A stretch of DNA of 64,000 bases from Nitrospinota bacterium (GCA_029881495.1 JAOUMJ010000005.1:9042-73041); one strand, 5' to 3'. Shown: positions 2,008 to 20,728, counted from the first letter of the stretch. Numbers and translations are program-made. Notes: generated by a model not told the origin, from the letters alone.

Positions 2008-2967
2008 TTACTCTTTTCCATTGGCTTTCCCGGGATTGTCTGTGACATTGTATTTTGGCTGAAACCTCTTTATGAGGTAGGTTTCTGCAGCCCCCAGATA
2101 CTCTGGGGAGACAGGAATATATGAGAACGAATCGAAGAGTTTTGTTTGTTCTCTAGAATGGCCCGATATACGGTACAAAATATTGATGCTCATCCCGATA
2201 TAGACGATCTCATCCTTATCCAGCAGAAAATATACGCCGGATATGACGGGCGAATTTAAAATTTTGTTCTTAAGAATAGTCTCTACTGTTAAATTATTCA
2301 GAGTGTGATAGCTAATGTCAGATAAAACGTAAGCTCCTGCATGCAAGGCTTCATAGTAGTTGGCAATAAGCGCAGGCTCCCCAAGCGAAGGGCGTTCACT
2401 AATAGAATTATATGTATATCGAAAGGTTATGAGTAATGCTGTTAGCCGTGCTTCCCAGAAGGAAATTTTGGAACAGGAGCCAATGCATACTTCATCAATA
2501 TTGAGCAGGTTGCATCGGCTCCCATCGCGCGACACTTTAAGAATTTGTATATACAGCTTTTCTATGCCTTCTACTCTTACTCCGAATCCATCTATTTCTG
2601 TGTCAAAATACGTTTCGTTTGTGTCTTTCCTGCATGGGATATCTGCGACAGCCTCTTTAGTTAGCTTTAAATAGTGAACAGCCCCTCTTTTGTGGACTTT
2701 ATGTTTTATGTCTAGTAGCTCCAAGTGTGGCTTCCGCAATGCCTCAGACGGCTTTCTTGTAGCAGGAATGTCGTACGTAACGGGGAGCTTGTATTTTGCA
2801 GGGTTAAGGGGGACTTTAAATTCCGCTGCGGGTTCAGTGTTTGGCGCGCAACCCACTGGATCCCCGCTTTCGCGAGGATGACAAACAGGGGGGAGGGAGG
2901 AGGCGCGGGGAGACGCAGAACCGCATGGAGTTTCCTCACGGGGAGTCGGCGCGATAATGTCGCGCAT
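2008..2967 (-). CDS. GIY-YIG nuclease domain protein with an N-terminal integrase-arm-type (DUF4102-like) DNA-binding domain; start uncertain
   Basis: C-terminal region reads GVYFLLDKDEIVYIGMSINILYRISGH...ETYLIKRFQPKYNV, a GIY-YIG pattern. Upstream, LKLTKEAVADIP..ETYFDTEIDGFGVRVEG...ISFWEARL resembles the P4-type integrase Arm-DBD. The first ~60 codons of the track ORF run through REP copy 1 and are probably untranslated. An in-frame TTG at 2724 would give 238 aa. Confidence 0.6.
   Translation of the reverse strand: MRDIIAPTPREETPCGSASPRASSLPPVCHPRESGDPVGCAPNTEPAAEFKVPLNPAKYKLPVTYDIPATRKPSEALRKPHLELLDIKHKVHKRGAVHYLKLTKEAVADIPCRKDTNETYFDTEIDGFGVRVEGIEKLYIQILKVSRDGSRCNLLNIDEVCIGSCSKISFWEARLTALLITFRYTYNSISERPSLGEPALIANYYEALHAGAYVLSDISYHTLNNLTVETILKNKILNSPVISGVYFLLDKDEIVYIGMSINILYRISGHSREQTKLFDSFSYIPVSPEYLGAAETYLIKRFQPKYNVTDNPGKANGKE
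2856..2883 (+). repeat. REP-like 28-bp palindromic element, copy 1
   Basis: ctggatccccgctttcgcgaggatgaca. Stem atccccgc/gcgaggat, loop tttc. Confidence 0.8.
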
Positions 2968-3113
2968 AGGTGAGGCCGGCTTAGCCGGACAGATATCGCA
3001 ATGTGGTTTTAAAAATACCCTGTCCGCCGGGAAAAAGCAAGTGGAAAAATGGGGAGTATTCGCATATCCGTATCAGGGGGGTAATCGGGTAAAATGCCGA
3101 TTGAGGAGGAGTG

Positions 3114-3683
3114 ATGGAAAAGAAGGGAACGATACTTATAGTCGACGATGACGAAACTGTCCGCCACCAGGTGAAGCGGATATTTTCCGCCGAGTACGAC
3201 ATCATCGAGGCGGCGACGGCGGAGGAGGCAAACAGGATAGTACGCCACGGAGCAGGGGACATCCGCCTCATAATTCTGGACTATCTCCTGTCCGACAAGG
3301 GGCGGCTGACAGAGACAGGGCTCGATCTGTTTCGGGGATGGGTGAAGGATTGCCCGATGCTTCCGCCGGTGATCATGATGACGGCCTATCCGACGACGAA
3401 CCTGGCGGCCGAGTTCTCGCATAACTACTCTGGAATAGCGTTTGCCGAAAAGCCTGTTCGCCCGGAGGTGCTGAAAGCGCTGGTTGAGGATTCAATACAG
3501 CGGAGCGGACGAGAGATGGAGTGGCGAAACCGGCAGTGCTATGAACTTATCCGCATGAAGGTCGGGGGGAGGATAAAGGACATTCTCCAGTCGATGAGCC
3601 CGGCGGTCGAGCGGATAGAGCCGCTACCACTTCGCGATGAGATTCAGCGGGGCCTTGATCGTATAGCCGGCCTGCTTAAATGA
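3114..3683 (+). CDS. Orphan response-regulator receiver (CheY-like REC) domain protein, phage-encoded
   Basis: ILIVDDDETVRHQV (acidic pocket), IRLIILDYLLSD (phospho-acceptor Asp), VIMMTAYP (Thr), AFAEKPV (Lys). The ~65-aa C-terminal helical tail has no recognisable output domain. SD gaggagga precedes the ATG at 3114; the track ORF starts at the GTG at 3111. Confidence 0.8.
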   Translation: MEKKGTILIVDDDETVRHQVKRIFSAEYDIIEAATAEEANRIVRHGAGDIRLIILDYLLSDKGRLTETGLDLFRGWVKDCPMLPPVIMMTAYPTTNLAAEFSHNYSGIAFAEKPVRPEVLKALVEDSIQRSGREMEWRNRQCYELIRMKVGGRIKDILQSMSPAVERIEPLPLRDEIQRGLDRIAGLLK

Positions 3684-3885
3684 TCTGATCGAGGATACGG
3701 AGATGCTCCATGTTTGGCGAGCGCATGGCCGAGCCCCATTTTTTCGCCGTGACCGGATGAACCCGGCACTTCTCGGCCAGTTGATCCCATGTGAGGCCCG
3801 CTTCCTGCCGTCGAGAGTTGATCTCTTCGCCGAGGAGATGGCGGTTTTCCGCGTCGATGTCGACAAGTTTTTTTCTTTTTTTCAT
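3676..3885 (-). CDS. XRE-family helix-turn-helix protein (69 aa)
   Basis: INSRRQEAGLTWDQLAEKCRVHPVTAKKWGSAMRSP is a Cro/C1-type HTH pattern. It is the last gene of a 3-gene minus-strand cassette. Its 3' end overlaps the convergent REC gene by 8 nt. Confidence 0.65.
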   Translation of the reverse strand: MKKRKKLVDIDAENRHLLGEEINSRRQEAGLTWDQLAEKCRVHPVTAKKWGSAMRSPNMEHLRILDQII

Positions 3886-3923
3886 ATCATGTGTTCCATT
3901 CCTCGTTTTCGTCGAAAAGTCTG

Positions 3924-4205
3924 CTATTGTACCCCCTTTATTATTGCGGAAAAACGGTCTGAAAAATTGTGTAGATTCCCTTGTCCGTCGAATACGTCCG
4001 GCAAAATAACCGCCCCGAGAATATTATCTTCGTCGATGAAATCTTGTGCTTGTGGATAATCCGGGAAATCAATAGTATCAGTTTCAGTTATGAGCAATAC
4101 CCGGTTATATTCAATCAGCCCGTTTTTGGTTAGTATTTCCCATGCGTCTGTTTCTGTAATTTTTCCATGACCAATTAAATCGCATATTTTTTGTATATCG
4201 TTCAT
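3924..4205 (-). CDS. Hypothetical protein (93 aa)
   Basis: ORF in an operon-like array with 4239..4466 and 3676..3885. No motif recognised. Confidence 0.45.
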   Translation of the reverse strand: MNDIQKICDLIGHGKITETDAWEILTKNGLIEYNRVLLITETDTIDFPDYPQAQDFIDEDNILGAVILPDVFDGQGNLHNFSDRFSAIIKGVQ

Positions 4206-4238
4206 TTTTTTATCCCCCTTTTTAAAGTTATTGTTTCC

Positions 4239-4466
4239 TTAATATCCAGAAGGTTTTAATAAATCCCCGTTATCATCTGTCAATTCAAGCCTTGCGGCAT
4301 CCTCTAACGTGATAACAATCCCCTGCGGATGTTCATATCTCGCAGACAATTTAGAGCCTACCGGGTAGATTGTAGCATCCAACCGAGTGACCACCGAACC
4401 ATCTGAACAGTGCAATACGGCAACATTCCCATCCTCGTTTATTCGACCGAATATCTCCATTTTCAT
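4239..4466 (-). CDS. Hypothetical protein (75 aa)
   Basis: Start moved to MKMEIFGRINEDG. SD aaggagga lies 5 nt upstream and the promoter at 4506-4534 lies just upstream. The longer track ORF (to 4580) would begin upstream of that promoter. Confidence 0.5.
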   Translation of the reverse strand: MKMEIFGRINEDGNVAVLHCSDGSVVTRLDATIYPVGSKLSARYEHPQGIVITLEDAARLELTDDNGDLLKPSGY

Positions 4467-4505
4467 ATCCTCCTTATTAAATGTTTCTCTTTGTCTCTTG
4501 GTTAC

Positions 4506-4534
4506 ATGATAGCCTAATATGGCTATCATGTCAA
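4506..4534 (-). promoter_or_regulatory. Sigma70-type promoter with embedded palindromic operator for the 75aa-93aa-XRE cassette
   Basis: Reverse strand reads TTGACA-17 nt-TATCAT. The spacer and -10 are occupied by a perfect 9-bp inverted repeat, ATGATAGCC-N6-GGCTATCAT (4506-4529). Confidence 0.6.
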
Positions 4535-4852
4535 GGGGGAAAAATAAAAAAATAATTATTTTTTTTAAAATACTGCGCATATATTTTCACACTTAAAGGT
4601 GCGGGGTAACTCTCTGGATTGTGTGTCTGCTTTCCCGTATCCACTTGGGTGACAGTGAACAGATGCGCAATTCCCTGCACACATTACGCCCCTAATAATC
4701 CCATAAATATCATAAATATGGAATTTCCCTGCGCATTGACACCCCCATAATTGCATGTACGATATAGTCAGTGGGAAGCAGGGGGAAATAGATTTTTCGT
4801 GTAATTTTCGGTACCGTGTGGTATAATAGGGCATAACCGGGGGAGGAGCGAG

Positions 4853-4987
4853 TTGCTGAAACGAATGCTGAATTGCAGGCTGATCATGGCCATTCGGATC
4901 GGCTGGCGCTTTATGGCGTGTCTGGACGAGTACGACCGAAAGGCAGTTCTTACCGTATTGAAAATTGACCGAACTGTAAAAACTTAG
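4853..4987 (+). CDS. Possible 44-aa mini-ORF (TTG start; in-frame ATG at 4865)
   Basis: An extended -10 box tgGTATAAT at 4819-4827 and SD gggggaggag lie upstream. Translation: LKRMLNCRLIMAIRIGWRFMACLDEYDRKAVLTVLKIDRTVKT. Too short for the ORF track, and no homology is recognisable. Confidence 0.2.
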   Translation: MLKRMLNCRLIMAIRIGWRFMACLDEYDRKAVLTVLKIDRTVKT

Positions 4988-5170
4988 CGTATCGTTTCGA
5001 GCCACCTTGCGGTTTTTTGTGGGTGAGCGACGGGGAGAAGGTGCAAATCTTCCTATATTCTGTCCGCCCTCAAAAGTTTCCACCTTGTCAAGAAATAGTG
5101 TTAATATGTCGATGTAAAGAGATGTCAAGGCGATAACTATTTTAACTATTCTGAAGGAGGTTCTACGCCA

Positions 5171-5512
5171 ATGAACACACCAATGACGTTCAATGTCCTT
5201 TTCGAAAAGGATGGCAATGCTTGGGTGGGTCACTGTCTGGAGTTGGATATAGTTTCTTCCAGGGAAGATTTTGAATCCTCTATGGAGGAGATGGGAGATT
5301 TAATATCGACGGCGGTAAGCTACGCCTTTGCAAATGACAACTTGGAAAACCTTTACCATCCAGCTCCGCCAGAGATGTGGGAAAAGTTCTATAAGTGTAA
5401 GGGCCCAAAGGTAGACTCGCGCAAAGTTTTGGTTGGTCATAACTTCACAGACCCGAATCAAGGCAGGTTTGTACCGCCTGAAATTACGGCGAACGCTTGT
5501 TGTGTCGGGTAG
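5171..5512 (+). CDS. hicB: HicB-like (UPF0150) antitoxin-type protein
   Basis: MTFNVLFEKDGNAWVGHCLELDIVSSREDFESSMEEMGDLIS fits the HicB N-terminal pattern (y.v.e.dg.w.a.cpeL....G.t.eEa). SD aggagg is present. It lies directly upstream of a HicA-like ORF. No obvious RHH/HTH tail. Confidence 0.5.
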   Translation: MNTPMTFNVLFEKDGNAWVGHCLELDIVSSREDFESSMEEMGDLISTAVSYAFANDNLENLYHPAPPEMWEKFYKCKGPKVDSRKVLVGHNFTDPNQGRFVPPEITANACCVG

Positions 5513-5747
5513 CAGGCCTCTAAGACTTCGAGAACTCAAAACCCGCCTGCAAGAGTATGGGGTGAGAATGATGCAAAATCGAGGAAAAGGGTCAGAGATG
5601 ATTCTTTTAAAACCTGAAATCCCCGGCTCCAACAAAGGAGCCCAATACCCAATTAAAAACCACGGTCCCGGAACTGTAATAGGAGAAGGTACTATAAGTG
5701 CCTGCTTAAGGCGCTTTGAGATAAACCCGAAGGATTTCTGGAAATAA
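5502..5747 (+). CDS. hicA: HicA-like toxin-type protein
   Basis: RLRELKTRLQEYGVRMMQNRGKGSEMILLKP....YPIKNHGPGTVIGEGTISACLRRFEINPKDF matches the HicA layout (k.rEl.k.L...G.....gkGSH...p....vp.H...l..gtl..il). The usual GSH reads GSE. Start placed at a GTG overlapping the hicB stop; the track ORF begins at 5433. Confidence 0.5.
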   Translation: MSGSRPLRLRELKTRLQEYGVRMMQNRGKGSEMILLKPEIPGSNKGAQYPIKNHGPGTVIGEGTISACLRRFEINPKDFWK

Positions 5748-5818
5748 AGGCACCTTGGAAGGGATCCGAAACACAGTTTAAGTGTTAATAATTAACAAAA
5801 CGGCTCTGGTCGGCAGAG

Positions 5819-6145
5819 TTAAGGTTTCGGTCGTTCTGAATAGACCTTGATAATATCCGCAACCATCTTTTTATCTTTTTCAATTAGCCCCTTGAATGAC
5901 TCAAAAATAATCTTCTCCTCCGGGGTGACGGCGAGCCGTTCCGGTTCCTCGCCGGTGAGGAGCCATGTCGGGTCGCAGTTTGTAATCTTCACAAGTTTGT
6001 AGAGATAGTCAGCATCGGGTTGGCGCCGCCCTTTCTCGTAGTTTAAAACCGTGTTGAAATGCACACCTGTTTTATAGGCGATATCGGACTGGTTAAATCC
6101 GGCTTTTTCTCGCGCCTCTTTCAATCGGTCTTTAATATCAGTCAT
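5819..6145 (-). CDS. CI-like XRE-family repressor (HTH only, no S24 peptidase domain)
   Basis: LKEAREKAGFNQSDIAYKTGVHFNTVLNYEKGRRQPDADYLYKL. Divergent from the long plus-strand early operon. Confidence 0.75.
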   Translation of the reverse strand: MTDIKDRLKEAREKAGFNQSDIAYKTGVHFNTVLNYEKGRRQPDADYLYKLVKITNCDPTWLLTGEEPERLAVTPEEKIIFESFKGLIEKDKKMVADIIKVYSERPKP

Positions 6146-6186
6146 TTATATCCACAAACAAAGGAAACAAAAATAGATAAAAAATA

Positions 6187-6218
6187 TTGACAAACTCATA
6201 CGCATGTGTGAGTATATA
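6187..6218 (+). promoter_or_regulatory. Candidate early rightward promoter with overlapping operator palindrome
   Basis: TTGACA at 6187-6192. An A/T-rich -10 candidate (gagtat / tatata) follows 17-20 nt downstream. The near-palindrome CTCATAC-GCAT-GTGTGAG (6195-6212) fills the spacer. Confidence 0.4.
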
Positions 6219-6227
6219 TCCATGAAG

Positions 6228-6296
6228 GTTGTGCAAACGTTCTCTGGGAAAGTTTCGGGGGGGAGAAACTGCGTGGACATCCTTGGTTTGCACAAC
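6228..6296. repeat. Perfect 11-bp inverted repeat pair in the switch region
   Basis: gttgtgcaaac (6228-6238) and gtttgcacaac (6286-6296). Confidence 0.6.
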
Positions 6297-6508
6297 TCCG
6301 GTAAGCACAAAGTAGATCCCCTCCTTTTTCTTTCAATTCTTATTTTTGCCACATTAAAAGTCATACAGACGCACGTCTTTCATCATATCAATTTTTATGT
6401 GTTCTTTCCCGTAAGATTTGCTCCTCGATTTTCATCAGCGGGATGGTGTGTGAAGGGCGCGGGGCTCGGCTTCGATTTCGGCCCCGCGTCTGATTATCAA
6501 TCTATCGC

Positions 6509-7204
6509 ATGGGGGTGTGTATGAAAACTGGTGAAGGAAAAGCCAAAGGAAGTAACGGGAACGGGAACGGCGCAGGAGAGCGGCAGTCGCTCGGGCGCAA
6601 TGCCATATCGGAATCGCCGGAGCTGGCGGAGGAGGTGCTGAGCCTGACGGGGGATATACAGTCCCTCATGCGCCGACTGATGACAACAAAGAATAGCGAG
6701 TTGAAAAGCGCTGTCGAGGCGGAGAGAGCGAGGATCAAGGAGGACGCGGAGCGGATAGTCAACCGTTCGCCTGGTCTCTGCACGGCATTCGCCGACCTGA
6801 TAGGGAAATCCAAAACTCTTGTCTTGGGGAGCATGAGCCGTTTCACTCAGGCAATGCAGATGCAAGCGTCATGGATAGTTCCCCTCACGCTCTTCTTTAA
6901 AGACACAACCCTGCTTGAAGGTATCGCCATGAGGTGCGGATATGGAATACACAAACTGCCGTCACCATCGGACGAGACGAAAGAGGGGCTGATGTTCCGC
7001 ATGGGGAAATACGTCGGGGAGTCGGGAGTGCTCCTTCAAAAGATGTCGGACGCTCTTGAGGATGGAAAGATCACCGACGCGGAGAAGAGAGAACTGTATG
7101 CGGAGGGATGCGTGATAATCCGCCATCTCCTCGAGGTTTTGGAGAGCGTAAAGCTGATCGCCGAAAAGACCGAAGCGGCGCGAGTGCAGAAGGGGGAGGA
7201 GTAA
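6509..7204 (+). CDS. Early-operon protein, function unknown (possibly a CII-type regulator)
   Basis: First ORF of the rightward operon. The C-terminal ALEDGKITDAEKRELYAEGCVIIRHLLEVLE is loosely reminiscent of phage CII/CP76-type regulators. The exact start is uncertain. Confidence 0.5.
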   Translation: MGVCMKTGEGKAKGSNGNGNGAGERQSLGRNAISESPELAEEVLSLTGDIQSLMRRLMTTKNSELKSAVEAERARIKEDAERIVNRSPGLCTAFADLIGKSKTLVLGSMSRFTQAMQMQASWIVPLTLFFKDTTLLEGIAMRCGYGIHKLPSPSDETKEGLMFRMGKYVGESGVLLQKMSDALEDGKITDAEKRELYAEGCVIIRHLLEVLESVKLIAEKTEAARVQKGEE

Positions 7205-7206
7205 TC

Positions 7207-7911
7207 ATGGAGCGGATAAAGATATACGATCGTTTCAGGGGTGGAGTGATATACGAAGCAAGCGATAACGCCCGGACTATCAAGGAGGCGGTCGAAGAGG
7301 GGGTGGCAAGGGGGGTAAATCTAGCTGGCGCGGATCTGAAAGCCGCTAACCTAGAGGGAGCAGAGCTAAGTTACGCAAACCTTGCGGAAGCAAACCTGTC
7401 GATAGCGAACCTTAAGGGGGCGAAGCTATGGAAAGCGGACCTTCGGAAAGCTTCTCTAGAACAGGCGAATCTTGCGGATGTCGATCTTCGTTACGCGCAC
7501 CTGTTCGGCGCATATCTTGGCGGGGCGAATCTTGTGAGAGCAAAACTTAATGGAGTTACTCTTGCGAGAGTCTACCTTCGGGGGGCGAATTTCGAGGGGG
7601 CGACGGGATATTCGGATTCGCTCGATGTGCTGATGGAACTCATCCGCCAGTTCCCGGTAACGACATTCAGCGAACCGGAATGGCGCGCGATAGGGATCAT
7701 CGCCGTGCACAGTTTCAGCATTAATCGTATTCCTGATCTACCACTATATTTCGATAATGATCTCTATCCTGTATTTGAAAAGCTGGCAGAAAAAGGGTTC
7801 GGCGAATGGCTGTATCTATACAAAAAGAAACTGCAAGTACAAGTAATTGAAGTTGCCGGGGCGGTTGAGCGGTCCGGCGTGGGCAGTAACGTGACAGCAT
7901 TGGAGGAATGA
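7207..7911 (+). CDS. Pentapeptide-repeat protein
   Basis: About 20 consecutive A(D/N)LxG-type pentads: ANLEGAELSYANLAEANLSIANLKGAKLWKADLRKASLEQANLADVDLRYAHLFGAYLGGANLVRAKLNG. Start set at MERIKIY with SD gggggaggag; the track ORF starts at 7108. Confidence 0.85.
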   Translation: MERIKIYDRFRGGVIYEASDNARTIKEAVEEGVARGVNLAGADLKAANLEGAELSYANLAEANLSIANLKGAKLWKADLRKASLEQANLADVDLRYAHLFGAYLGGANLVRAKLNGVTLARVYLRGANFEGATGYSDSLDVLMELIRQFPVTTFSEPEWRAIGIIAVHSFSINRIPDLPLYFDNDLYPVFEKLAEKGFGEWLYLYKKKLQVQVIEVAGAVERSGVGSNVTALEE

Positions 7912-8195
7912 ATGATGTCTCATCGTAACGGAGTGTCCGGCTAGGCCGGGCAGGTAACGCAATGGACGACGGACGGTCGACGATCCCTAATATATTAACC
8001 CTGCCATTGAGTGGGGTGGTGAAGCGACCGTCTGTCATTGATAACAGAGTATTAATAACGCCCTCCAAAGGGCCGGAGACGTCGGCTGGTAAACTCTCAA
8101 TAATTCGTGGTGTTTTGGTTCAGATTTGTTTTCATTTTCTTACGGCTCTCCGGCCATTGTTTATAACGTGTTTCAGGGAAATCCCCCCTATGCAA

Positions 8196-8240
8196 CTGGC
8201 CGGGAAGGTTGCCCCCATGCACCGACCCGGCCAGCTTTTT
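8196..8240 (+). terminator. Intrinsic-terminator-like hairpin inside the early operon
   Basis: CTGGCCGGG (8196-8204) pairs with CCCGGCCAG (8226-8234). An inner GGT.GC/GCACC extension is possible. Followed by CTTTTT. Confidence 0.45.
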
Positions 8241-8254
8241 ACCATCGGCTTGCC

Positions 8255-8282
8255 TGTCATCCTCGCGGATGCGGGGATCCAG
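8255..8282 (-). repeat. REP-like element, copy 2 (inverted orientation)
   Basis: tgtcatcctcgcggatgcggggatccag is the reverse complement of the consensus. Confidence 0.8.
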
Positions 8283-8305
8283 TCGCAGAGGCAACGGGGT
8301 GACGG

Positions 8306-9571: not shown

Positions 9572-9682
9572 CGATGAATTTCAACTGCGGGGATGACGTG
9601 GCGAACAGGCGGATGCGGGGCGGCTGACAGTTTCATAGGGAGGTAGAGGCATGGACGAAATAGATTTGATGGTTTTGGTTTC

Positions 9683-11052: not shown

Positions 11053-11060
11053 GGTTTGAA

Positions 11061-13326: not shown

Positions 13327-14567
13327 ATGGTAATAGTGCCGAGATCACTTGTATCGAGCTTTGCGCTGGATACTCTGGAATTTCCCTCGGACTTGAACGA
13401 GTTATCCCGGGTCTGCGCGTCGTCGCTTACAGCGAGATCGAAGGTTTCGCCTGCGTCAATCTGGGAGAAAAGATGGAACGCGGGTGGCTGGATCCGGCTC
13501 CTGTCTTCACGGATCTTAAAGAGTTCCCGGGCGAAGAGTTTCGTGACAAGGTACACCTCATCACTGGCGGATATCCGTGCCAGCCGTTCTCCGCTGCCGG
13601 AAAGCGGAAAGGGGAGGACGATCCGCGACATTTATGGCCTCACATTGCACGACTCATCAAGACAGTTCGGCCTGTTTGGGTGTTCCTTGAAAACGTCGAG
13701 GGACACGTTACGCTTGGACTCTCCACAGTTGTCAGCGACCTGGGAGAGTTGGGTTATCGAACAACGTGGGGACTATTCAGCGCGTCTGAAGTCGGCGCAC
13801 CTCACGGACGGAAACGGGTCTTCATTCTTGGGGAACTGGCCGACGATATGCGCCGCTCAGAATCGGAACAGTCGAGGGGCAATAATTCTCAAGGGGACAG
13901 CGCACCAAGATCACGGTTCGGCGCTGGGATTGGAGCAGGTGGTAGAGCTTGCCGAAGGGATATTGCCAAAGGAAATGACATCCCCGGAGGAGATACCAGC
14001 AGGGCGGAAGAATCTGTGGACGACGGCGGTGAAGCGAGAGATGTGGGCGACACCAAACACACTGGATCATTTACCGGAGAGAAGCCCGGAGGCGTTGCGG
14101 CGGCAATTCAATACAACAAGGATTGGGCGGACATCTCCGGCAAATCTTCGGGAACAGATGAACCCTGCAAATTATCCGAGGCAGATGTACCCGACACCTA
14201 CGGAGCAGGATGCGAAGAACAATGCCGGCCCTTCTCAATTCGAAAGGAACTCGCTCCCGCTGAATGCGTTTGTGACCGTTGGCCAGCAGGACCGGGAGAA
14301 GAGCAGTACGGATGGGAGCCGCCGCGAACCACCAAACCATTCGTCCGTATCGCAAACCGACATGGAGGCTTTATCGACGAAGCAAGAGAAGCGGAACAAC
14401 AGGAAGCTGAATCCTCGATGGGTGGAGACGCTGATGGGTTTGCCGATTGGATGGTGCAGGCCGACAGCCGACAGGATGAACTGCGGATGCTCGGAAACGG
14501 GGTCGTACCGGCAACGGCAGCGAGAGCGTGGACAGTTTTGTACGGTCGGATGAGGGAGGGGAGATAG
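13323..14567 (+). CDS. DNA (cytosine-5)-methyltransferase (frame 0; see finding on the second frame)
   Basis: Motif I IELCAGYSGISLG, IV GGYPCQPFSAAG, VI ENVEG, VIII APHGRKRVFI, RWPAGPGEEQYGWEPPR, X LRMLGNGVVPATAA. Confidence 0.85.
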   Translation: MNGNSAEITCIELCAGYSGISLGLERVIPGLRVVAYSEIEGFACVNLGEKMERGWLDPAPVFTDLKEFPGEEFRDKVHLITGGYPCQPFSAAGKRKGEDDPRHLWPHIARLIKTVRPVWVFLENVEGHVTLGLSTVVSDLGELGYRTTWGLFSASEVGAPHGRKRVFILGELADDMRRSESEQSRGNNSQGDSAPRSRFGAGIGAGGRACRRDIAKGNDIPGGDTSRAEESVDDGGEARDVGDTKHTGSFTGEKPGGVAAAIQYNKDWADISGKSSGTDEPCKLSEADVPDTYGAGCEEQCRPFSIRKELAPAECVCDRWPAGPGEEQYGWEPPRTTKPFVRIANRHGGFIDEAREAEQQEAESSMGGDADGFADWMVQADSRQDELRMLGNGVVPATAARAWTVLYGRMREGR

Positions 14568-14750
14568 ATGGGATTGCCGGGGACATGCCCGCTGTGTGAA
14601 AAAGTATTCATGATGGAGCATCCGAAGGAGGTTTGCGACAAGTGCAAAGGGTTCAAGCCGCATCCGCCTGTTATTGCCGAACGGGGGGAGCATGTTTCAT
14701 CCGTCGTGAAGAGGCGGAATAAATCGCCGGAGAAGCTATACGGGACTTAA
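14568..14750 (+). CDS. CxxC zinc-ribbon mini-protein
   Basis: CPLCEK...CDKCKG. The ATG directly follows the upstream stop. Confidence 0.45.
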   Translation: MGLPGTCPLCEKVFMMEHPKEVCDKCKGFKPHPPVIAERGEHVSSVVKRRNKSPEKLYGT

Positions 14751-14798
14751 TGTTGGAGGCGTTCAGGGCGATGAATGTTTTTAAAAAAAGGAGGATCT

Positions 14799-15164
14799 AT
14801 GGCAAATGAACAGGAAATAACGTTGGAGAATGTTGGCGGGGGGGTAGCGGCGGAGCTGTTCGCTATCGAACTGGAAAAGGTAGTGGCCAACATCGCTGAC
14901 CCGAACATCGAGGCGGAAGGGGTGAGGGAGATTACCCTGAAAGTCCGCTTCAAGCCGGACAAACAGCGGAAGACATCGCCGGTGGATATATCCGTATCGT
15001 CGAAACTCGCAGGGAGACGGGCGCATTCAGCGATGGCGTATTTCGGGAAGGACCAGACAGGGCGGCCTGTGGTTATAGGCTACAACCCAAATCAGACGAC
15101 GTTCAACTTCATGCCGGAAGGCGTATCAGCAATAAACGAAAAGAAGGAGGCGAAACATGCTTGA
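14799..15164 (+). CDS. Hypothetical phage protein (121 aa)
   Basis: Start moved to MANEQ behind SD aaaggagga. Overlaps the next gene by 8 nt. Confidence 0.55.
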   Translation: MANEQEITLENVGGGVAAELFAIELEKVVANIADPNIEAEGVREITLKVRFKPDKQRKTSPVDISVSSKLAGRRAHSAMAYFGKDQTGRPVVIGYNPNQTTFNFMPEGVSAINEKKEAKHA

Positions 15165-15882
15165 AGAAGCGATGACCTATTTTAGAAATCTGGTGCAGGA
15201 GGTAACGCCGGTCGAGGAGGTGGACGGGCGAAAATACAACAACAGCGGCGGATCGCTGAAACCAATCCTTGAACCTTTTCCCGGGGTGATGGGGTTTTCT
15301 ACGTTGTCCGGTCTGGTAGCCTGGGCGAAAGAGCAGGTGATCGAGATTGAAAAAGAGGGGAAGAGGGAGAAAACCCCGCCTTATTTTGTAGTTGATAGTT
15401 TCTGGCGGGTCTCTTTTTATGGGCCGGTTTGCGGGGCGTTCAAGCAACGTCCATTGATAGCCGGAGCCGACCACGTCCACAAACCGTTCCCCTTTGGGCG
15501 GGAGCACGATACGGAGGAATTTATAATCGCCCTTCAGGCGAAGTTCATCATGGACGACAACTTGAGAACCTTGCTGAGCCTTGCCAGCCGTGTTGAGGAC
15601 AAAACAATCATCGGTGCCGAGGATAATGGCATTTCGCAGACGGTCACCGCCAAGAAGAGCGTCGCGACAAGGGAGAATGTGACCCTGCCGAATCCGCTGA
15701 TGCTGAAACCGTTCTCGACGTTCCCGGAGATAGATCCGCCAGCGAAACCGTATGTCATGCGAGTTAAGGCCGGCCTGAAGTGGGTGCTTTACGAGACGGA
15801 CGATACCGCATGGGGAGTCGAGGCGACCAAGCGGACGGCGGCATGGATAACGGCGAACTCGGAATTCAAGGTTTACTCGTAA
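15157..15882 (+). CDS. Hypothetical phage protein (241 aa)
   Basis: Balanced composition. The longer antisense ORF 15109..16095 is Arg/Pro-rich junk. Confidence 0.6.
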   Translation: MLEEAMTYFRNLVQEVTPVEEVDGRKYNNSGGSLKPILEPFPGVMGFSTLSGLVAWAKEQVIEIEKEGKREKTPPYFVVDSFWRVSFYGPVCGAFKQRPLIAGADHVHKPFPFGREHDTEEFIIALQAKFIMDDNLRTLLSLASRVEDKTIIGAEDNGISQTVTAKKSVATRENVTLPNPLMLKPFSTFPEIDPPAKPYVMRVKAGLKWVLYETDDTAWGVEATKRTAAWITANSEFKVYS

Positions 15883-15933
15883 AAATGTTAAGCCAGGGGG
15901 GGCATGTTGCCCCCTCGAAAAAAGGAGAGAAAT

Positions 15934-16143
15934 ATGGAAGTCGTAGAAAACCGGAAGAGGCCGACAGAAAAAGCCAAGTTCAGTATGCGAGATAACAGAG
16001 GGGTCGCCGTGATCGATTGTATCGAATGCGAAAGAGGGCGGCACGGGACAGAGGAGAAGTGTTCCAGTGGTCACCACCTTAAAAAAGGGCGGCAAGGGTG
16101 TTGCTGTTCAGGAACCTTGCTAAGCACCTTAACACTGGATTGA
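15934..16143 (+). CDS. CxxC mini-protein (69 aa)
   Basis: Start at MEVVENRK behind SD aaaggagag. Contains CIECERG. Confidence 0.45.
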   Translation: MEVVENRKRPTEKAKFSMRDNRGVAVIDCIECERGRHGTEEKCSSGHHLKKGRQGCCCSGTLLSTLTLD

Positions 16144-16156
16144 AAGGGAAAAGCTA

Positions 16157-16184
16157 CTGGATCCCCGTCTGCACGGGGATGACA
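16157..16184 (+). repeat. REP-like element, copy 5 (compensated stem)
   Basis: ctggatccccgtctgcacggggatgaca. Perfect stem atccccgt/acggggat. Intergenic. Confidence 0.8.
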
Positions 16185-16198
16185 GGAAGGGAGGATTA

Positions 16199-16441
16199 AT
16201 GGCTAGAAAGTATTTTTGTGACGTGTGCGATACCGAATACGAGGAAGGTTCTCATCTTGTAATAAACACAGGGGGGGATCGCAAGGATATCAGGTTTTCT
16301 GATATATGCAGGGAATGCAGGGATACGATTATGGATGCCGTCGCGACGATCGTCAAAAACAAAATTCGGTCCAGCCACGGGATACCTGAGAAGGTAGATA
16401 TCGAATCGCTTGAAAAGGATATCGAGATCGTATCCTCATAG
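16199..16441 (+). CDS. CxxC zinc-ribbon mini-protein (80 aa)
   Basis: CDVCDTE...CRECRD. SD ggaagggagg. Confidence 0.5.
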   Translation: MARKYFCDVCDTEYEEGSHLVINTGGDRKDIRFSDICRECRDTIMDAVATIVKNKIRSSHGIPEKVDIESLEKDIEIVSS

Positions 16442-16469
16442 ACAATGAGCAACAGGGAGAGATGAGAGA

Positions 16470-17294
16470 TTGAAAAAGGAAGGACAGGCACCGGCGTTTC
16501 AGTTTTATCCGGGTGATTTTTTATCAAATCCGCAGATAACGCTGATGACACCGGAAGAGCGCGGGGGATATATAAACCTGATCTGCTACGCATGGCAGGA
16601 CGGGGAGTGTTCGTTGCCGAACGACGAGACGCTATTGGCGCGACTGTCCGGTCTGGGTGAAGGGTGGTTGAAGGGGTGTTCAACCGCGATTATGAAAATG
16701 TTTGAAGTGGACCCGAACGACAAGACGAAAATCTTTTCAACTTGGCTTCGCGACGAGCGCGAAAAGCAGAGACGACACAGGGAGGCGAGCATACGCGGGG
16801 GGAAAAACTCCGTTAAATCAAGGGGATTGGCTCTCAAGGGTACTTCAACCGGGCAGGTTGAAGGGGCGTTGAACCCTTCTTCTTCATCTTCTTCTTCATC
16901 TTCAGACTTCAGTCATAAAAAGAAAAATATAAAAAAGGAAAAAAGCATTAACCCGGATTTTGAGAAGTTTTACGAGCTGTATCCGCGCAAGGAGGCAAAA
17001 GCCCGGGCGCTAAAAGCATTCGAGCAGTTAAAGCCGGATGAAAAGTTGCTCGGCGTGATACTCACACGTCTGGAACTCCAAGTGAACCGCTGGAGAGCCA
17101 CCGGTACCGCGTCGGAATTTATCCCCTTGCCTGCAACGTGGCTGAACGGCGAGCGGTGGGAGGACGAGGTTACGAATAAATCCAATTCTGGCGGGAAGAA
17201 GCCCGGCGTAAACGGAACAAACGGGGCGGGGCATCGCCAGGTGAGGCCGGAACCTGCCAAAGAGCGAGATAAGGCCGGAGCGTACGATTTATGA
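16470..17294 (+). CDS. Replication initiation-type protein (DUF1376/YdaU N-domain, poly-Ser linker, C-domain)
   Basis: PAFQFYPGDFLSNPQITLMTPEERGGYINLICYAWQDG (DUF1376); SSSSSSSSS linker; NPDFEKFYELYPRKEAKARALKAFEQL. Precedes the DnaC-like loader. TTG start. Confidence 0.7.
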   Translation: MKKEGQAPAFQFYPGDFLSNPQITLMTPEERGGYINLICYAWQDGECSLPNDETLLARLSGLGEGWLKGCSTAIMKMFEVDPNDKTKIFSTWLRDEREKQRRHREASIRGGKNSVKSRGLALKGTSTGQVEGALNPSSSSSSSSSDFSHKKKNIKKEKSINPDFEKFYELYPRKEAKARALKAFEQLKPDEKLLGVILTRLELQVNRWRATGTASEFIPLPATWLNGERWEDEVTNKSNSGGKKPGVNGTNGAGHRQVRPEPAKERDKAGAYDL

Positions 17295-18088
17295 AACATG
17301 TGGCAGATTACGTAAACCCGTTCCTCAAACGGTTCGAGGAGGTGCAGGCGCGCCACGAGGCGGAGCTGGCGAAGTGCAACCTTTCATGCAGGGTTACCGT
17401 GCCGAGCGAGACCCTCAAGAGCGAAGAGCCTGAGATTTTGAAAACCGCGATCGAGGATATCAGGTTCTCGCACAAGGGAAGCTGTGCCGGAGTCGAGGCC
17501 GCTGTCGCTGAGATAGAGAAACGGCTTCGCTATCTGAAAAATACCCGGATGGCGGCGTATCTGAAGGCGCAGGGGTTCTCGGAGCGGGACATCAGAGCTG
17601 TCCTTTTCTCGCCGCTGAATACACTCTATCCCGCCTGGCAGGCTGTTGATAAATACATGCGGGGGGGGTACGAGGGGCGGAGTTACGGGACGGGTGATTG
17701 TCTGATACTCGCCGGACCGCCCGACGCGGGGAAGACATTCGCGGCAGTGTGGGGGGCGGCGCAGATCCGCAAGGGGCAGAGGTATATTTTCTGTTCCGAT
17801 ATCTCGCCCAAACTGCGACACGAGCAGGGGTTTCTGGAATGGATGAGCAAAGCGCCGTTTCTGGTGCTCGACGATTACAACGGAGCGGGGAGCGATCCGC
17901 ATTTCAACGAGGCGCTGAAAACGGTCTTTCATCATCGCCATGCCGGCAAGTTGGCGACGATAGTGACGACGAACAAGAACATGGAGGATTTCAAGGCGAG
18001 CCTGCCGGAGGTGATATTGTCGCGCCTGTCGAAACGCCGGGGTGGCTGGGGCGTATTTGTAGAGGTTGCAGGAAAGGGGGGGGAGTGA
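17291..18088 (+). CDS. DnaC/IstB-like AAA+ helicase loader
   Basis: Walker A LILAGPPDAGKTF, Walker B FLVLDDYNG, sensor TIVTTN. Confidence 0.8.
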   Translation: MKHVADYVNPFLKRFEEVQARHEAELAKCNLSCRVTVPSETLKSEEPEILKTAIEDIRFSHKGSCAGVEAAVAEIEKRLRYLKNTRMAAYLKAQGFSERDIRAVLFSPLNTLYPAWQAVDKYMRGGYEGRSYGTGDCLILAGPPDAGKTFAAVWGAAQIRKGQRYIFCSDISPKLRHEQGFLEWMSKAPFLVLDDYNGAGSDPHFNEALKTVFHHRHAGKLATIVTTNKNMEDFKASLPEVILSRLSKRRGGWGVFVEVAGKGGE

Positions 18089-18753
18089 TGGTAATTGAAG
18101 ACATGAAATATATTGAATGCCCTGCTTGTGATGGCAAAGGCAGTACCGGTCATATGTTTGCTTGTGGGCAAAGTTCAGAATGGGAAAATGTCGATCTTGG
18201 ATGCAATCTTGTTTGGCATTTTTGCCCAATGTGCAAGGGGAGGAAGAAACTGCCTTCCGGTCGGGATGGGTGGAAGATAGCAGGTGCTAACATGAGAGAA
18301 ATTCGAGAAAGCATAAAATACTTTGTCGGTTCTGAGAATGGGCGTTGGTGTTTATCCGGTGATGGCGGCGATGGTTATGAACGGCGAAATCTGACAGTAG
18401 GTGAAACGGCCGAATATCATGATATACCGGCCAAGGAATTGCACAAGATGGAGCTTGGGGGAATGGATCTCTCAAAAATTGCGAAATTATATATGCCAAT
18501 GTACCTCTGGGCCGTAGACAAATGCTCCGTCGAGGGATGCGAATTACCCGGAGACCGTCTCTGTGATTATCCGGTATCAGATGATAAGAGCTGTGATTTT
18601 ATTGTTTGCGAAGATCATTCGATTGAAATCGGGGTGGATATCCACCTATGCCATGTTCATGTTGAGTTCTACAAAAAAGCAAATGATGCTTCCGGTATGC
18701 AAACGACAAGTAAGCTGCTGGGGCATGAGATATCCAGAAAGAGGGGGGAGTGA
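18088..18753 (+). CDS. Cys-rich protein with DnaJ-type CxxCxGxG fingers (221 aa)
   Basis: Start at MVIEDMKYIECPACDGKGSTG..CPMCKGRKK, overlapping the dnaC-like stop. The track ORF from 17698 is an out-of-frame read-through of the upstream gene. Confidence 0.55.
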   Translation: MVIEDMKYIECPACDGKGSTGHMFACGQSSEWENVDLGCNLVWHFCPMCKGRKKLPSGRDGWKIAGANMREIRESIKYFVGSENGRWCLSGDGGDGYERRNLTVGETAEYHDIPAKELHKMELGGMDLSKIAKLYMPMYLWAVDKCSVEGCELPGDRLCDYPVSDDKSCDFIVCEDHSIEIGVDIHLCHVHVEFYKKANDASGMQTTSKLLGHEISRKRGE

Positions 18754-19040
18754 TGAAGTACCGGTATATGATTTCGTTTCAGTGCCCCCGGGTAGACGGC
18801 TCCGACATAGTTTACCGATGCGCCGAGTTGACCGCTGAAAACCCTATTCTCAGGGTGGCAGATTTCCGAGAAGGGTTATCTCAACTACATCCAGAACTTG
18901 ATATCCCCCATTTTGTGCCGACGTATTTTGCTTTGCTGGAAAAAATCCCTAGTCGAGCCGAGAAGGTGGGCTATTACGTCTATTATTGCATCGTGGTTAT
19001 GTTGTTTCTGTGGTTGGTAATTCATTTGGGGGGGGAGTGA
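18750..19040 (+). CDS. Hypothetical protein with C-terminal TM helix (96 aa)
   Basis: GTGATG junction. YYVYYCIVVMLFLWLVIHL. Confidence 0.45.
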   Translation: MMKYRYMISFQCPRVDGSDIVYRCAELTAENPILRVADFREGLSQLHPELDIPHFVPTYFALLEKIPSRAEKVGYYVYYCIVVMLFLWLVIHLGGE

Positions 19041-19606
19041 TGAGTAAAATATATAAAGTAAGCGAATGCAATAGGTGTCCTGATTTTGTCCGTTGTCGGC
19101 ATCTTAGGTGTCAGACAGGATTTAAAGTTGGCAGGATTCATCCTGATTGCCCCCTTCCCGATGATACCAGCGAGAGCGAAACTAATAGTAGCAGTGAAGA
19201 AATTGTATCACTAAGAATGCAACTATCAAAGATGCGAATAGCGAACAAGGAAGAGACCGACCAACTGAAAGCACAGGTGGCAGTGTTGCATGATATAGCC
19301 TCTAGCCTGCTGGAAAAGGTAGAAGAAAATGAGATAAATAGCGACTATCTGATATATAACCGCAAAATTAACGAATTGCCTAAAACTGCTATCGAATACA
19401 TGGAAGAGTATCGGCGGCTAAAAGACGAGATAACAACTATGGCAGATCGCAATCGTGCTTTGATTAGTGTAGTGGATAAGATGGAAGAGGTGTTAAAAAA
19501 TGTTCTTAGGCGTGTAGAACCTCACTCAATAATTAAGGGCGACGATTCTTATTCTTTGTCAATGGGCATTGCCCAGACAATAACGGAGGCATTGAAAGAT
19601 GTATAG
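19040..19606 (+). CDS. Hypothetical coiled-coil protein with N-terminal Cys cluster (188 aa)
   Basis: Start at MSKIYKVSECNRCPDFVRCRHLRC behind ggggggag. Confidence 0.5.
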   Translation: MSKIYKVSECNRCPDFVRCRHLRCQTGFKVGRIHPDCPLPDDTSESETNSSSEEIVSLRMQLSKMRIANKEETDQLKAQVAVLHDIASSLLEKVEENEINSDYLIYNRKINELPKTAIEYMEEYRRLKDEITTMADRNRALISVVDKMEEVLKNVLRRVEPHSIIKGDDSYSLSMGIAQTITEALKDV

Positions 19607-19796
19607 GTCAAACCGTCACGAGTCCAGCGTCTGCTTAGCGTGTAAGCATGAAGATTTTAATGAGAATTTTAATCACGGTATCGCCGATACGGGAGACTAT
19701 AGTGTGAGCTGTCCCAAGTGTGACGCCGGTGAAACAATGATATCAGATATTGATTATTTGAGTTTCGGCCCGTTTGAGGTGGGGAGAAAGATATGA
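19599..19796 (+). CDS. CxxC zinc-ribbon mini-protein
   Basis: CLACKH...CPKCDAG. Confidence 0.45.
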   Translation: MYRSNRHESSVCLACKHEDFNENFNHGIADTGDYSVSCPKCDAGETMISDIDYLSFGPFEVGRKI

Positions 19797-20089
19797 AAGG
19801 TAAGGCACCGGGGGGCGGGGCGTTCGAGGTGTTTTTATATACTGGTATGGTAGGTGCGTTGCTAGGCTCGGGGGAATTTCTAATGGCTATGATGATGTTC
19901 ATGGTCTATCTCTATTTTCTCGCAAATATGATCGTTCAATCACTTAAACAGGCACTGGCTCCCCGCGTTCGCGAGGATGACAAGAAGGGTGAGGCATTGA
20001 ACGCGCCTGATGGCGCACCACAGACTGAAGTCTATGCTACCAAAACGGGAAGCGGGGATGACAGGGCGGAAGGGATGCAGGATGGATAA
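19793..20089 (+). CDS. Small membrane protein; ORF runs through REP copy 6
   Basis: FLYTGMVGALLGSGEFLMAMMMFMVYLYFLANMIV, then ALAPRVREDDKKG (REP translation). Confidence 0.4.
   Translation: MKGKAPGGGAFEVFLYTGMVGALLGSGEFLMAMMMFMVYLYFLANMIVQSLKQALAPRVREDDKKGEALNAPDGAPQTEVYATKTGSGDDRAEGMQDG
19955..19982 (+). repeat. REP-like element, copy 6
   Basis: ctggctccccgcgttcgcgaggatgaca. Confidence 0.75.
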
Positions 20090-20303
20090 AATAAAAATCG
20101 AAACTGATGGGCAGAGGACGAACATAACATACGGTGGAAAACCCGTGAAGCATATTACCAAAGCGGTGATTGAAATGACTCCCAGAACCAAGACGCTCAC
20201 ATTGACGGTTGACGACCTTTTTGACCTGGATGCAGAGTTCCCGCCGGAGTTTTGCCGGATAGTGAAAGAGAAGACAGTTGAAATAAAGGGGGAAGGGGGA
20301 TGA
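20082..20303 (+). CDS. Hypothetical protein (73 aa)
   Basis: Start at MDKIKIETDG. ATGA overlap downstream. Confidence 0.45.
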   Translation: MDKIKIETDGQRTNITYGGKPVKHITKAVIEMTPRTKTLTLTVDDLFDLDAEFPPEFCRIVKEKTVEIKGEGG

Positions 20304-20728
20304 GATGTGAGAACTGCGACGAGTACGACATAGAGCCTTTGGCATGTGATCCGACGGATCCATACTGTCACGGCGTGGATGACTATCTGAAGAGAGAAGA
20401 AGCCGGAGAGGTTATTCCTGCGAGCGGCTGTCCGAAAAAAGCTGTGGAGGTAAAAGTAAAAACGACTCCACCGCCGGAAGGGCGGTATTGCATCCGTGAC
20501 ACGATAGACCGGAGGGAGATATGCGAGAGGTATCTGTACAGCACCCATAGAGATGAAATATTTTGCGGCAAACCGCGTGACGGGAAGTATTTGGCGATTG
20601 AGCATGAAAAAACATTCGGTCGCCGTCCGCTCAAAATCAGGGAGTGTTTAGAGGAGACGACAAAGCAACTGGATCCCCGCGTTCGCGAGGATGACAAAGA
20701 GGGGGATAACGATGAACGGGGAGAATGA
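20300..20728 (+). CDS. Cys-containing hypothetical protein; tail is REP copy 7
   Basis: CENCDE... The C-terminal QLDPRVREDDKEG is the REP translation. Confidence 0.5.
   Translation: MRCENCDEYDIEPLACDPTDPYCHGVDDYLKREEAGEVIPASGCPKKAVEVKVKTTPPPEGRYCIRDTIDRREICERYLYSTHRDEIFCGKPRDGKYLAIEHEKTFGRRPLKIRECLEETTKQLDPRVREDDKEGDNDERGE
20669..20696 (+). repeat. REP-like element, copy 7
   Basis: ctggatccccgcgttcgcgaggatgaca. Confidence 0.8.

Follow-up and report, generated by a model that had tools for sequence, protein, structure and literature searches.

The seven 28-nt palindromes found in the 64-kb window (the whole stretch of DNA that was analysed) are, as judged from their sequence, solo copies of the Ssn-related motif (SRM), a pan-bacterial repeat family that includes the NTS and dRS3 repeats of Neisseria. 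This family has already been described and is very widespread; the oddity here is that seven members are gathered in one prophage with no ssn gene of its own. Our full account, to which we assign a probability of roughly 0.78, is that these solo SRM copies are putative sites of Ssn binding and cutting in trans, that they arrived in the manner of a MITE or REP element, and that they are tolerated at gene junctions.

The Ssn/SRM system was first described in 2025 (Chenal et al., Nat Commun 2025; PMC11893778). Ssn nucleases, GIY-YIG enzymes of about 94 residues that act on ssDNA only and ignore RNA, bind the NTS/SRM hairpins in single-stranded form and cleave just 5' of them. Mutagenesis established that the GTC before the palindrome is needed for cleavage and that the C right after it is needed for binding. 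The Neisseria NTS contains dRS3, and an SRM lies near 71% of ssn homologues. This enzymology derives from four proteobacterial Ssn proteins, three from Neisseria and one from Wolbachia, and specificity varies among homologues (PMC11893778).

The preliminary description had listed seven 28-bp palindromes, and a search of the window for CTGGATCCCCGC-N4-GCGAGGATGACA recovers every one of them in place, with 0 expected (100 shuffles); copies 5 and 6 carry three mismatches and one mismatch, respectively. Read as the reverse complement, TGTCATCCTCGC-GNAN-GCGGGGATCCAG, all seven fit the published SRM search pattern, HGTCWYN(0-2)YYVSBRHN(0-5)WNVSBRGN(0-2)RNCYNB (PMC11893778), on the expected strand. 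The same pattern has no other match across the 64 kb, and Markov simulations yield a mean of 0.4. Comparison with the Neisseria NTS (CGTCATTCCCGCGMAVGCGGGAATCYRG) reveals agreement at 22 of 26 comparable positions and differences at the remaining 4. Both determinants defined by mutagenesis (the leading GTC and the trailing C) are present in 7/7 copies, as are the flanks TGTCAT... and ...AT(or AG)CCAG; recognition positions are almost uniformly intact, and two loop positions vary. The loops had been listed correctly, but they do not simply differ from copy to copy: on the + strand they are constrained to N-T-N-C, that is, G-N-A-N on the other strand, which is near the published GMAV.

Like the NTS/SRM repeats served by SsnA, the window copies are 28-nt directional hairpins composed of a GTC, an 8-bp stem, a 4-nt G.A. 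loop and a C-rich 3' flank, and they are multi-copy, sit at gene borders and belong to a family found across phyla. Several features set them apart. Their stem is CCTCGC/GCGGGG, with a T.G pair, rather than the TCCCGC/GCGGGA of NTS; all are solos rather than doublets; and they reside in a temperate phage rather than in the chromosome. Most overlap ORF 3' ends, whereas NTS of N. meningitidis are intragenic in only 2% of cases (PMC11893778). Finally, there is no ssn gene within 64 kb, and the link to natural transformation is known for Neisseria, not for the window copies.

Folding calculations and family-wide covariation both describe a hairpin. As ssDNA, the NTS-type strand folds with energies of -6.3 to -9.2 kcal/mol, copy 6 being weakened. 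In the main variant the T.G pair gives -6.3 kcal/mol on this strand, versus -4.3 kcal/mol for the opposite strand with its C.A mismatch. A covariation test, proposed in the preliminary description, was carried out on 78 distinct family members chosen independently of the SRM search pattern; both partners have changed in 7/8 stem pairs, pairing is kept in 96% of cells and 0/500 shuffles equal this result, which supports the hairpin. Copy 5 (CCCCGT/ACGGGG, loop CTGC) had been read as a compensatory change. Its 28-mer is identical in two unrelated MAGs, one of Bacteroidetes and one of Saccharibacteria (L046, L054), so this copy is an imported member of a subfamily that already existed, and compensation in situ is rejected.

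All seven copies are held by a prophage (657..43883) bounded by a 34-bp direct repeat (657-690 / 43850-43883). The repeat is the 3' end of a tRNA-Pro gene (43855-43932, - strand), at which the prophage sits, and a tyrosine integrase is encoded at 787-2004 (- strand). Terminase, portal and capsid genes are at 25375-32439, and every copy is situated at or close to a gene border within the mosaic accessory region. Because the att repeats bound the prophage, host DNA makes up only about 20.8 kb of the window. As first described, the late half of the phage and this host DNA are empty: searches allowing three mismatches, with the SRM pattern and with a relaxed dRS3-like pattern detect no further copies or degenerate relics in the 64 kb. 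The reported confinement to the early, accessory part therefore holds as placement but is statistically weak, since phage-but-not-host placement gives p=0.064, a weak value owing to the small amount of host DNA, and early versus late placement gives p=0.007 by length and 0.08 with weighting by junction number. Only copy 2 has its NTS-type strand on +; in the other six it is the - strand, a 6:1 orientation that is likewise statistically weak (p=0.125). Regional clustering and this orientation are unexplained by a purely passive model, and neither is statistically strong.

Copy 1 (2856..2883, NTS-type strand TGTCATCCTCGCGAAAGCGGGGATCCAG on -) occupies the divergent region between ORF 2008-2967 (-) and the gene at 3114-3683 (+); provided that the long ORF is called correctly, it is translated as ..CHPRESGDP.. 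close to the N-terminus of the former. Copy 2 (8255..8282), the sole copy with the NTS-type strand on + (TGTCATCCTCGCGGATGCGGGGATCCAG), falls within the 3' end of ORF 7962-8309, 24 nt ahead of the VRR_NUC gene start (8306). Copy 3 (9174..9201, -) lies within the 3' end of ORF 9018-9263, where it encodes the tail LDPRVREDDRGAG..., and 58 nt separate it from the next start codon. Copies 2 and 3 are inverted and face outward around a + strand stretch of three genes (8283..9173), namely the VRR_NUC nuclease (8306-8692) and ORFs 8689-9021 and 9018-9263. This is the arrangement of the published NTS-ssnA-NTS unit (PMC11893778), and the stretch may represent a cassette.

Copy 4 (12771..12798, -) is located in the DUF5131/Gp37-Gp68 gene at 11847-12818, to which it supplies a 15-aa tail, LDPRLREDDKEGAGR. 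It begins directly after the last conserved residue of the protein (..KEFP), and in tblastn matches most of 80 relatives end at residue 308/323, the element boundary. Since homology stops exactly there, the element is an addition to the 3' end of this gene; the next gene begins 16 nt after it (ATGA overlap). Copy 5 (16157..16184, -), of the perfect-stem subfamily (TGTCATCCCCGTGCAGACGGGGATCCAG), is intergenic between 15904-16143 and 16199-16441, with the next start codon 14 nt away. Copy 6 (19955..19982, -) is slightly degenerate, its outermost stem pair broken (GGGGAGCCAG), and is internal to the small ORF 19793-20089. Copy 7 (20669..20696, -) lies in the 3' end of ORF 20300-20728, with the tail LDPRVREDDKEGDNDERGE, and the next gene (20712) begins 15 nt after the element. 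The spacings for copies 3, 4, 5 and 7 agree with those first given, and the earlier count of at least four copies yielding an LDPR(V/L)REDD-type peptide is borne out by copies 3, 4, 6 and 7, which are translated as L(D/A)PR(V/L)REDD(K/R) inside called ORFs. In another frame the element reads WIPAFARMT, whose first-noted resemblance to ...IPAFAGMT... peptides is borne out by the T/A variant of the family, with WIPAFAGMT in that frame. Spurious peptides of the ...IPAFAGMT... and ...LDSRLRGND... types in environmental genomes originate from this element.

Beyond the window, more than 120 bacterial genome loci, spread over many phyla, carry the same 28-mer, on which ground we reject an element specific to phages or to their early regions. 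Family members are often paired with an inverted GTCATTCCCGC..GCGGGAATCCAG partner, an Ssn-type gene adjoins the motif in 10 of 134 loci, and solo copies elsewhere favour gene 3' ends (89 vs 46). In other virus-like contigs the element adjoins capsid and terminase genes. Among such contigs of about 98% identity, a block consisting of an SRM doublet, ssn and an SRM is present or absent directly after the capsid stop codon; between L004/L007 and L005/L006 the entire post-capsid intergenic stretch is exchanged for an SRM-ssn-SRM block. These comparisons indicate that such units move in and out of gene junctions. Our searches yielded no empty-site relative of the present prophage, so we infer insertion of its copies from the homologues of one gene and from these other elements.

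In the account that we favour, the strand TGTCAT-CCYCGY-GNAN-RCGGGG-ATCCAG folds as ssDNA into a hairpin of 8 bp whose unpaired flanks are conserved. If the published biochemistry applies here as well, this hairpin would be bound, as ssDNA only and in one orientation only, by Ssn (cd10448), a small GIY-YIG nuclease of a single domain, which would cut a few nt 5' of it. In + coordinates, the predicted cut falls to the right of ...GATGACA, within the purine-rich spacer ahead of the next gene. No Ssn-type gene was detected within the 64-kb window (hmmsearch best E=1.6), so any cutting in the present host would need a nuclease supplied in trans by that host or by another element. The sole GIY-YIG ORF of the window, 2008-2967, does not resemble Ssn (hhalign probability 14%).

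The likeliest route of arrival is MITE/REP-like spreading or recombination with SRM-bearing DNA, presumably the process that also distributes SRM hairpins over bacterial chromosomes at gene 3' ends. The copies would persist because at the junctions of small accessory genes they merely add short read-through tails. In this they resemble MITEs such as the Correia elements and the Rickettsia palindromic elements, which are likewise small and non-autonomous and add peptide segments by read-through. Those elements, however, measure 100-150 bp and possess terminal inverted repeats and target-site duplications, whereas each window element is a single hairpin of 28 nt, and no duplication is detectable.

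A function at the RNA level, in which hairpins in early polycistronic mRNAs would stabilise upstream cistrons, act as processing sites, or attenuate or couple translation, appears unlikely to us. REPs of E. coli can act at this level, six of the seven copies are co-oriented with + strand genes and sit between cistrons, 14-58 nt ahead of the next start, and copy 5 forms a strong RNA hairpin (-16.4 kcal/mol, z -1.8). The sense hairpin of the main variant, however, contains the C.A mismatch and, flanks included, is no more stable than shuffled sequence (z +0.56 and +0.38), and none of the seven copies coincides with a U-tract or terminator-like site. Moreover, 119 solo copies in other genomes obey no orientation rule with respect to neighbouring genes (38 vs 51), and the unpaired flanks (GTC.., ..CCAG) are kept across phyla, which points to recognition by a protein; the only tested partner ignores RNA. 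The roles in RNA stability, processing and attenuation that had been raised initially are consequently unsupported.

We regard as similarly improbable the proposal that these 28-mers serve as recombination linkers, short homologies at gene borders by which phages and hosts would swap accessory modules. This proposal is compatible with SRM identity and concerns its consequence. It draws on the position of all copies at or near gene borders in a mosaic accessory region, on the inverted copies 2 and 3 that bracket three genes including VRR_NUC, and on the exchanged post-capsid stretch described above. Analogous proposals exist for dRS3/NIME in Neisseria, where dRS3 is tied to variable genes (PMC11893778). 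The window core, ATCCYC-N8-GGGGAT, is a palindrome of the same type as dRS3/NIMEs (ATTCCC-N8-GGGAAT), and in both cases the repeats flank variable accessory genes. Unlike the window copies, dRS3 is defined without directional flanks and is used as an integration target by filamentous phages of Neisseria, which employ a recombinase of their own (as cited in PMC11893778); the window phage instead integrates at tRNA-Pro by a tyrosine integrase, and its repeats are phage-internal. Against the proposal, 24-28 bp of homology is short for efficient general recombination, and our searches found no relative of this prophage in which module exchange at the copies could show.

It is very unlikely that the phage keeps the array for its own benefit, as programmed single-strand nick or entry sites in replication or recombination, as a decoy that titrates host Ssn or as insulation of accessory genes against recombination. 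The density of SRMs in the 43-kb prophage (7 copies) is about 100-fold above that of comparable DUF5131-containing loci (1 copy in 733 kb; P ~5e-13 under the latter density), but those loci belong to other hosts, and residence in an SRM-rich host may be all that the enrichment reflects. The family is essentially absent among 50,697 GenBank phage records, and both the intact recognition positions and the 6:1 orientation would fit such retention. On the other side, the orientation and the early-region bias are not significant once junction number is considered, and the phage has no ssn gene.

A REP/RAYT system, with the hairpins mobilised as REP sequences by a Y1 HUH transposase, is hardly credible: although elements of this family are short imperfect palindromes with conserved unpaired flanks at extragenic 3' ends, recognised as single-stranded hairpins, often in inverted doublets like REPINs and BIMEs and with a partner gene flanked by its own repeats, that documented partner is the GIY-YIG Ssn, found beside the motif in the loci counted above, rather than an IS200/IS605-type transposase, an enzyme of different fold and chemistry, no RAYT or Y1 HUH domain or other transposase-like match was seen among the ~50 annotated window ORFs scanned (Pfam/NCBIfam), and the 28-mer is nearly identical across phyla, whereas known REP families are lineage-specific. 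The preliminary description was therefore right to see REP-like, structure-constrained, protein-recognised miniature elements of a selfish or mobile kind; a RAYT-type TnpA partner, the RNA roles and compensation in copy 5 are not borne out.

A tentative and rather improbable extension is that the Ssn/SRM system both travels on and acts upon temperate phages and phage-like elements, this prophage having been colonised by, or deliberately retaining, an oriented array of Ssn sites at the junctions between its early and accessory genes. If so, a host ssDNA nuclease could nick the - strand when it is exposed in replication, recombination or induction, which would influence prophage induction, superinfection or module exchange, and phage carriage would help explain a near-identical 28-nt non-coding motif in bacteria from Patescibacteria to Proteobacteria. 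This prophage, which combines seven intact recognition sites with the lack of a nuclease gene, constitutes a natural test case, which could reveal whether Ssn acts on single-stranded phage intermediates, in restriction or regulation, and whether phages help spread SRM repeats. For annotation, the element explains spurious or extended ORFs with LDPRxREDD, WIPAFA(G/R)MT and CHPRESGDP peptides, and it marks true gene ends, such as that of DUF5131 at ..KEFP.

A pattern search allowing at most three mismatches recovers exactly the seven palindromes of the preliminary description, at 2856 (+), 8255 (-), 9174 (+), 12771 (+), 16157 (+), 19955 (+) and 20669 (+), and returns no match in shuffled window sequence. 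Alignment of these copies together with their flanks defines the conserved unit as A-CTGGATCCCCGC-NTNC-GCGAGGATGACA, and a relaxed dRS3-like search of the window finds no degenerate relics beyond the seven. All seven match, in reverse complement, the published pattern of the Ssn-related motifs (SRMs), which occurs nowhere else in the 64 kb (simulated mean 0.4). SRMs generalise the Neisseria Transformation Sequence (NTS), CGTCATTCCCGCGMAVGCGGGAATCYRG, which includes the classical dRS3 repeat (Chenal et al., 2025; PMC11893778). The window consensus differs from NTS at 4 of 26 comparable positions and retains the GTC and the post-palindrome C found critical by mutagenesis (PMC11893778). The Neisseria nuclease SsnA, a 94-aa GIY-YIG enzyme, binds the hairpin solely as single-stranded DNA and solely on that strand, cuts a few nucleotides upstream of it, and ignores double-stranded DNA and RNA (PMC11893778).

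An exact-pattern scan across one genome per species places the motif in at least 120 loci, the matches listed including Patescibacteria, Planctomycetota, Bacteroidota, Chloroflexota and Alpha-, Beta-, Gamma- and Deltaproteobacteria, with Rickettsia and Bradyrhizobium among them; IMG/VR yields 14 stretches with the motif. In the loci fetched, an inverted T/A-variant partner, GTCATTCCCGC-GAAA-GCGGGAATCCAG, often lies approximately 20 nt away, tandem half-repeats sometimes follow, and in some cases a gene for a GIY-YIG protein of about 95 aa directly precedes the motif. The ...IPAFAGMT... peptide mentioned in the preliminary description proves to be the T/A variant of this family read in frame 2; a literature search with IPAFAGMT-like peptide strings gave no match. 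The element family is known; what is new is this instance, in which solo copies are densely arrayed in a temperate phage that has no ssn gene. Downstream of many genomic SRM copies (loci L015, L024, L028, L054, L065, L089, L123, L129 and L133 of other genomes), the right half-site GGGGATGACA plus roughly 8-12 nt is repeated two to three times in tandem. A single half-site, GGAGATGACA, follows the window copy at 12771 and includes the start codon of gene 12815.

The window, which comes from a sediment metagenome, consists of a prophage and flanking chromosome. A 34-bp direct repeat (657-690 and 43850-43883), corresponding to the 3' end of tRNA-Pro, bounds the 43.2-kb prophage, whose integrase lies at 787-2004 and whose control region is of the CI/CII type. 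Its small early and accessory genes form a long plus-strand run that includes a pentapeptide protein, VRR_NUC, ThyX, DUF5131/Gp37-Gp68, a DNA methylase and a DnaC-like protein; lysis genes follow, and beyond these lie the genes for terminase, portal and a Mu-gpT-like capsid. Beside the immunity region, 3114-3683 (+) encodes a protein made up of a response-regulator receiver domain on its own (PF00072, E=5e-10), a type uncommon among phage accessory genes. The host flank carries HemW, sigma-54 regulators, Pgi, AccA and an MtrB/DmsE-type decaheme cluster. The last of these (52316-58479, +) comprises a DmsE-type decaheme cytochrome, an MtrB/PioB-family outer-membrane protein and a 925-aa multihaem-like protein, and suggests a sediment host that can perform extracellular electron transfer (iron cycling). 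Neither phage nor host DNA has nucleotide matches in GenBank phages or E. coli genomes, an Rfam scan of the window detects only tRNA, and IMG/VR contains no close prophage relatives as judged by the methylase, the DnaC-like protein and a GIY-YIG ORF. JGI metagenomes yield relatives of the DUF5131 gene alone, at no more than 52% identity, and one comparison contig, L136, extends the sequence outside the window by just 457 nt at its start.

Gene positions were taken from gene calls stored for an identical contig and mapped onto the window. The copies at 8255, 9174, 12771 and 20669 fall within the last codons of ORFs, that at 16157 is intergenic, that at 19955 lies within a 98-aa ORF, and that at 2856 occupies a divergent region adjoining the integrase-side ORF. 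Plus-oriented copies are followed by a purine- and G-rich stretch in which the gene downstream has its Shine-Dalgarno region. Runs of 5-8 G in these Shine-Dalgarno and spacer tracts are consistent with the GC skew of the early region, which is strong, sustained and positive between 6000 and 20000 (approximately +0.2, against approximately +0.05 to +0.1 in the late region).

One flanking gene, DUF5131, has many homologues. The proteins align through ..KEFP, after which the window protein goes on with LDPRLREDDKEGAGR, and most tblastn matches to 80 metagenomic relatives end at residue 308 of 323, the exact start of the element. The element therefore appears to have been added to the 3' end of the gene and to be read through to the next stop. 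Among 119 solo copies in other genomes, 3' ends of neighbouring genes face the element twice as often as 5' ends (89 vs 46), with no preference of orientation relative to the gene (38 vs 51). Inspection of the seven window copies reveals no consistent target-site duplications, and no prophage variant without a copy is present among the metagenome contigs aligned to the region, where only a few other contigs carry the 28-mer. The best-supported reading is that the copies are ordinary SRM-family members lodged at permissive gene junctions of the prophage.

Two further proposals, that the copies might serve as recombination linkers and that they might play a phage-adaptive role, are compatible with these data. 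The mutually inverted copies at 8255 and 9174 (8255-9201) bracket three genes, including the VRR_NUC nuclease, and share the outward-facing arrangement of the published NTS-ssnA-NTS unit; the enclosed stretch could be a cassette, or the arrangement a coincidence.

Covariation was assessed on 78 distinct family members from fetched loci, picked independently of our own search pattern. The 8-bp stem is 96% paired, a figure to be read in the light of the membership cut-off of at least 5 of 8 Watson-Crick pairs used to part members from noise, and two-sided changes occur in seven of the eight pairs. None of 500 shuffles equals the observed covariation values, and sliding the partner columns abolishes pairing. 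These results place the hairpin under selection family-wide, as already published (PMC11893778). The paired change in the perfect-stem copy at 16157 (CCCCGT/ACGGGG), first taken as a sign of structural selection, did not arise locally: two unrelated MAGs (L046 and L054) carry exactly this 28-mer with the same loop. In the main variant (CCTCGC/GCGGGG), the NTS-type strand forms a T.G pair where the opposite strand has a C.A mismatch, and the single-stranded DNA folds are -6.3 and -4.3 kcal/mol, respectively. This asymmetry was rejected as family-wide proof of a selected strand, since the non-Watson-Crick pairs in 136 unbiased copies comprise 11 C.A and 7 T.G.

Roles at the RNA level, among the possibilities listed in the preliminary description, are disfavoured because sense-strand RNA is no stabler than shuffles, terminator features are absent at the copies, the family follows no orientation rule, and the Ssn enzymes tested ignore RNA (PMC11893778).

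Any recognition of the copies would be in the form of minus-strand single-stranded DNA hairpins and would require an Ssn nuclease provided in trans. No Ssn-type gene is detected in any frame of the window with a profile derived from four Ssn-type proteins. The only GIY-YIG ORF there, encoding 319 aa at 2008-2967 (-) beside the integrase, was considered as a phage-borne Ssn and rejected, as it contains only a generic GIY-YIG core (Pfam E=1e-3, UvrC-like; hmmsearch E=1.6; hhalign probability 14%). This weak UvrC-like core is C-terminal, and the middle of the protein (..FDTEIDGFGVRVEG..KLYIQ..) resembles by eye the arm-type N-terminal domain of P4-like integrases. Its predicted N-terminus crosses the SRM copy at 2856, which makes the true start uncertain. 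The scanned window ORFs include no RAYT-like gene and no IS110-like gene.

The distribution of the copies was treated statistically. Their reported confinement to the phage is weak within the window (p=0.064), of which host DNA makes up only approximately 20.8 kb; the early-region bias holds by length (p=0.007) but not when weighted by gene junctions (0.08), and the 6:1 orientation is also weak (p=0.125). The observation made at the outset stands, and its interpretation is supported in part. Measured against 81 metagenomic and viral loci with DUF5131, which total 733 kb, include one genuine SRM and give an expectation of 0.06 per 43 kb, the SRM density of the prophage does stand out. A 30-mer BLAST of 50,697 GenBank phage records yields a single plausible copy, that of Microcystis phage MaAM05; a search for Ssn-type proteins there was negative.

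Virus-like contigs provide a further comparison. Contigs L005 and L006 differ from L004 and L007 (approximately 98% identical) in the stretch directly after the capsid stop codon. There, L005 (3500-4200) and L006 (5140-5830) carry a block of approximately 520 nt that combines an SRM doublet, a GIY-YIG gene of Ssn type (E=2e-38 against our own small Ssn profile) and an additional degenerate SRM, and L004 (6100-6440) and L007 (4090-4430) carry approximately 170 nt of unrelated sequence instead. Contigs of this type may represent GTA-type clusters and not true phages: a DUF2460/non-contractile-sheath (NCTSP) gene is present in the related L002, and L006 encodes a capsid of the HK97 type. Another contig, L010, has an SRM on either side of its large terminase gene; together with the L005 and L006 blocks, these sites indicate that SRMs are not tied to early regions. 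Contig L011 (31-2637, +) contains a phage portal gene split by an intein that bears a homing-endonuclease domain of the LAGLIDADG type.

Approximately 40 nt downstream of the copy at 19955, window positions 20021-20045 hold a 25-nt stretch beginning CAGACTGAAGTCTATGCTACC. In another contig, from metagenome run X1, an SRM is joined directly to this stretch and a similar unit recurs further along; the stretch may represent a second small repeat associated with SRMs.
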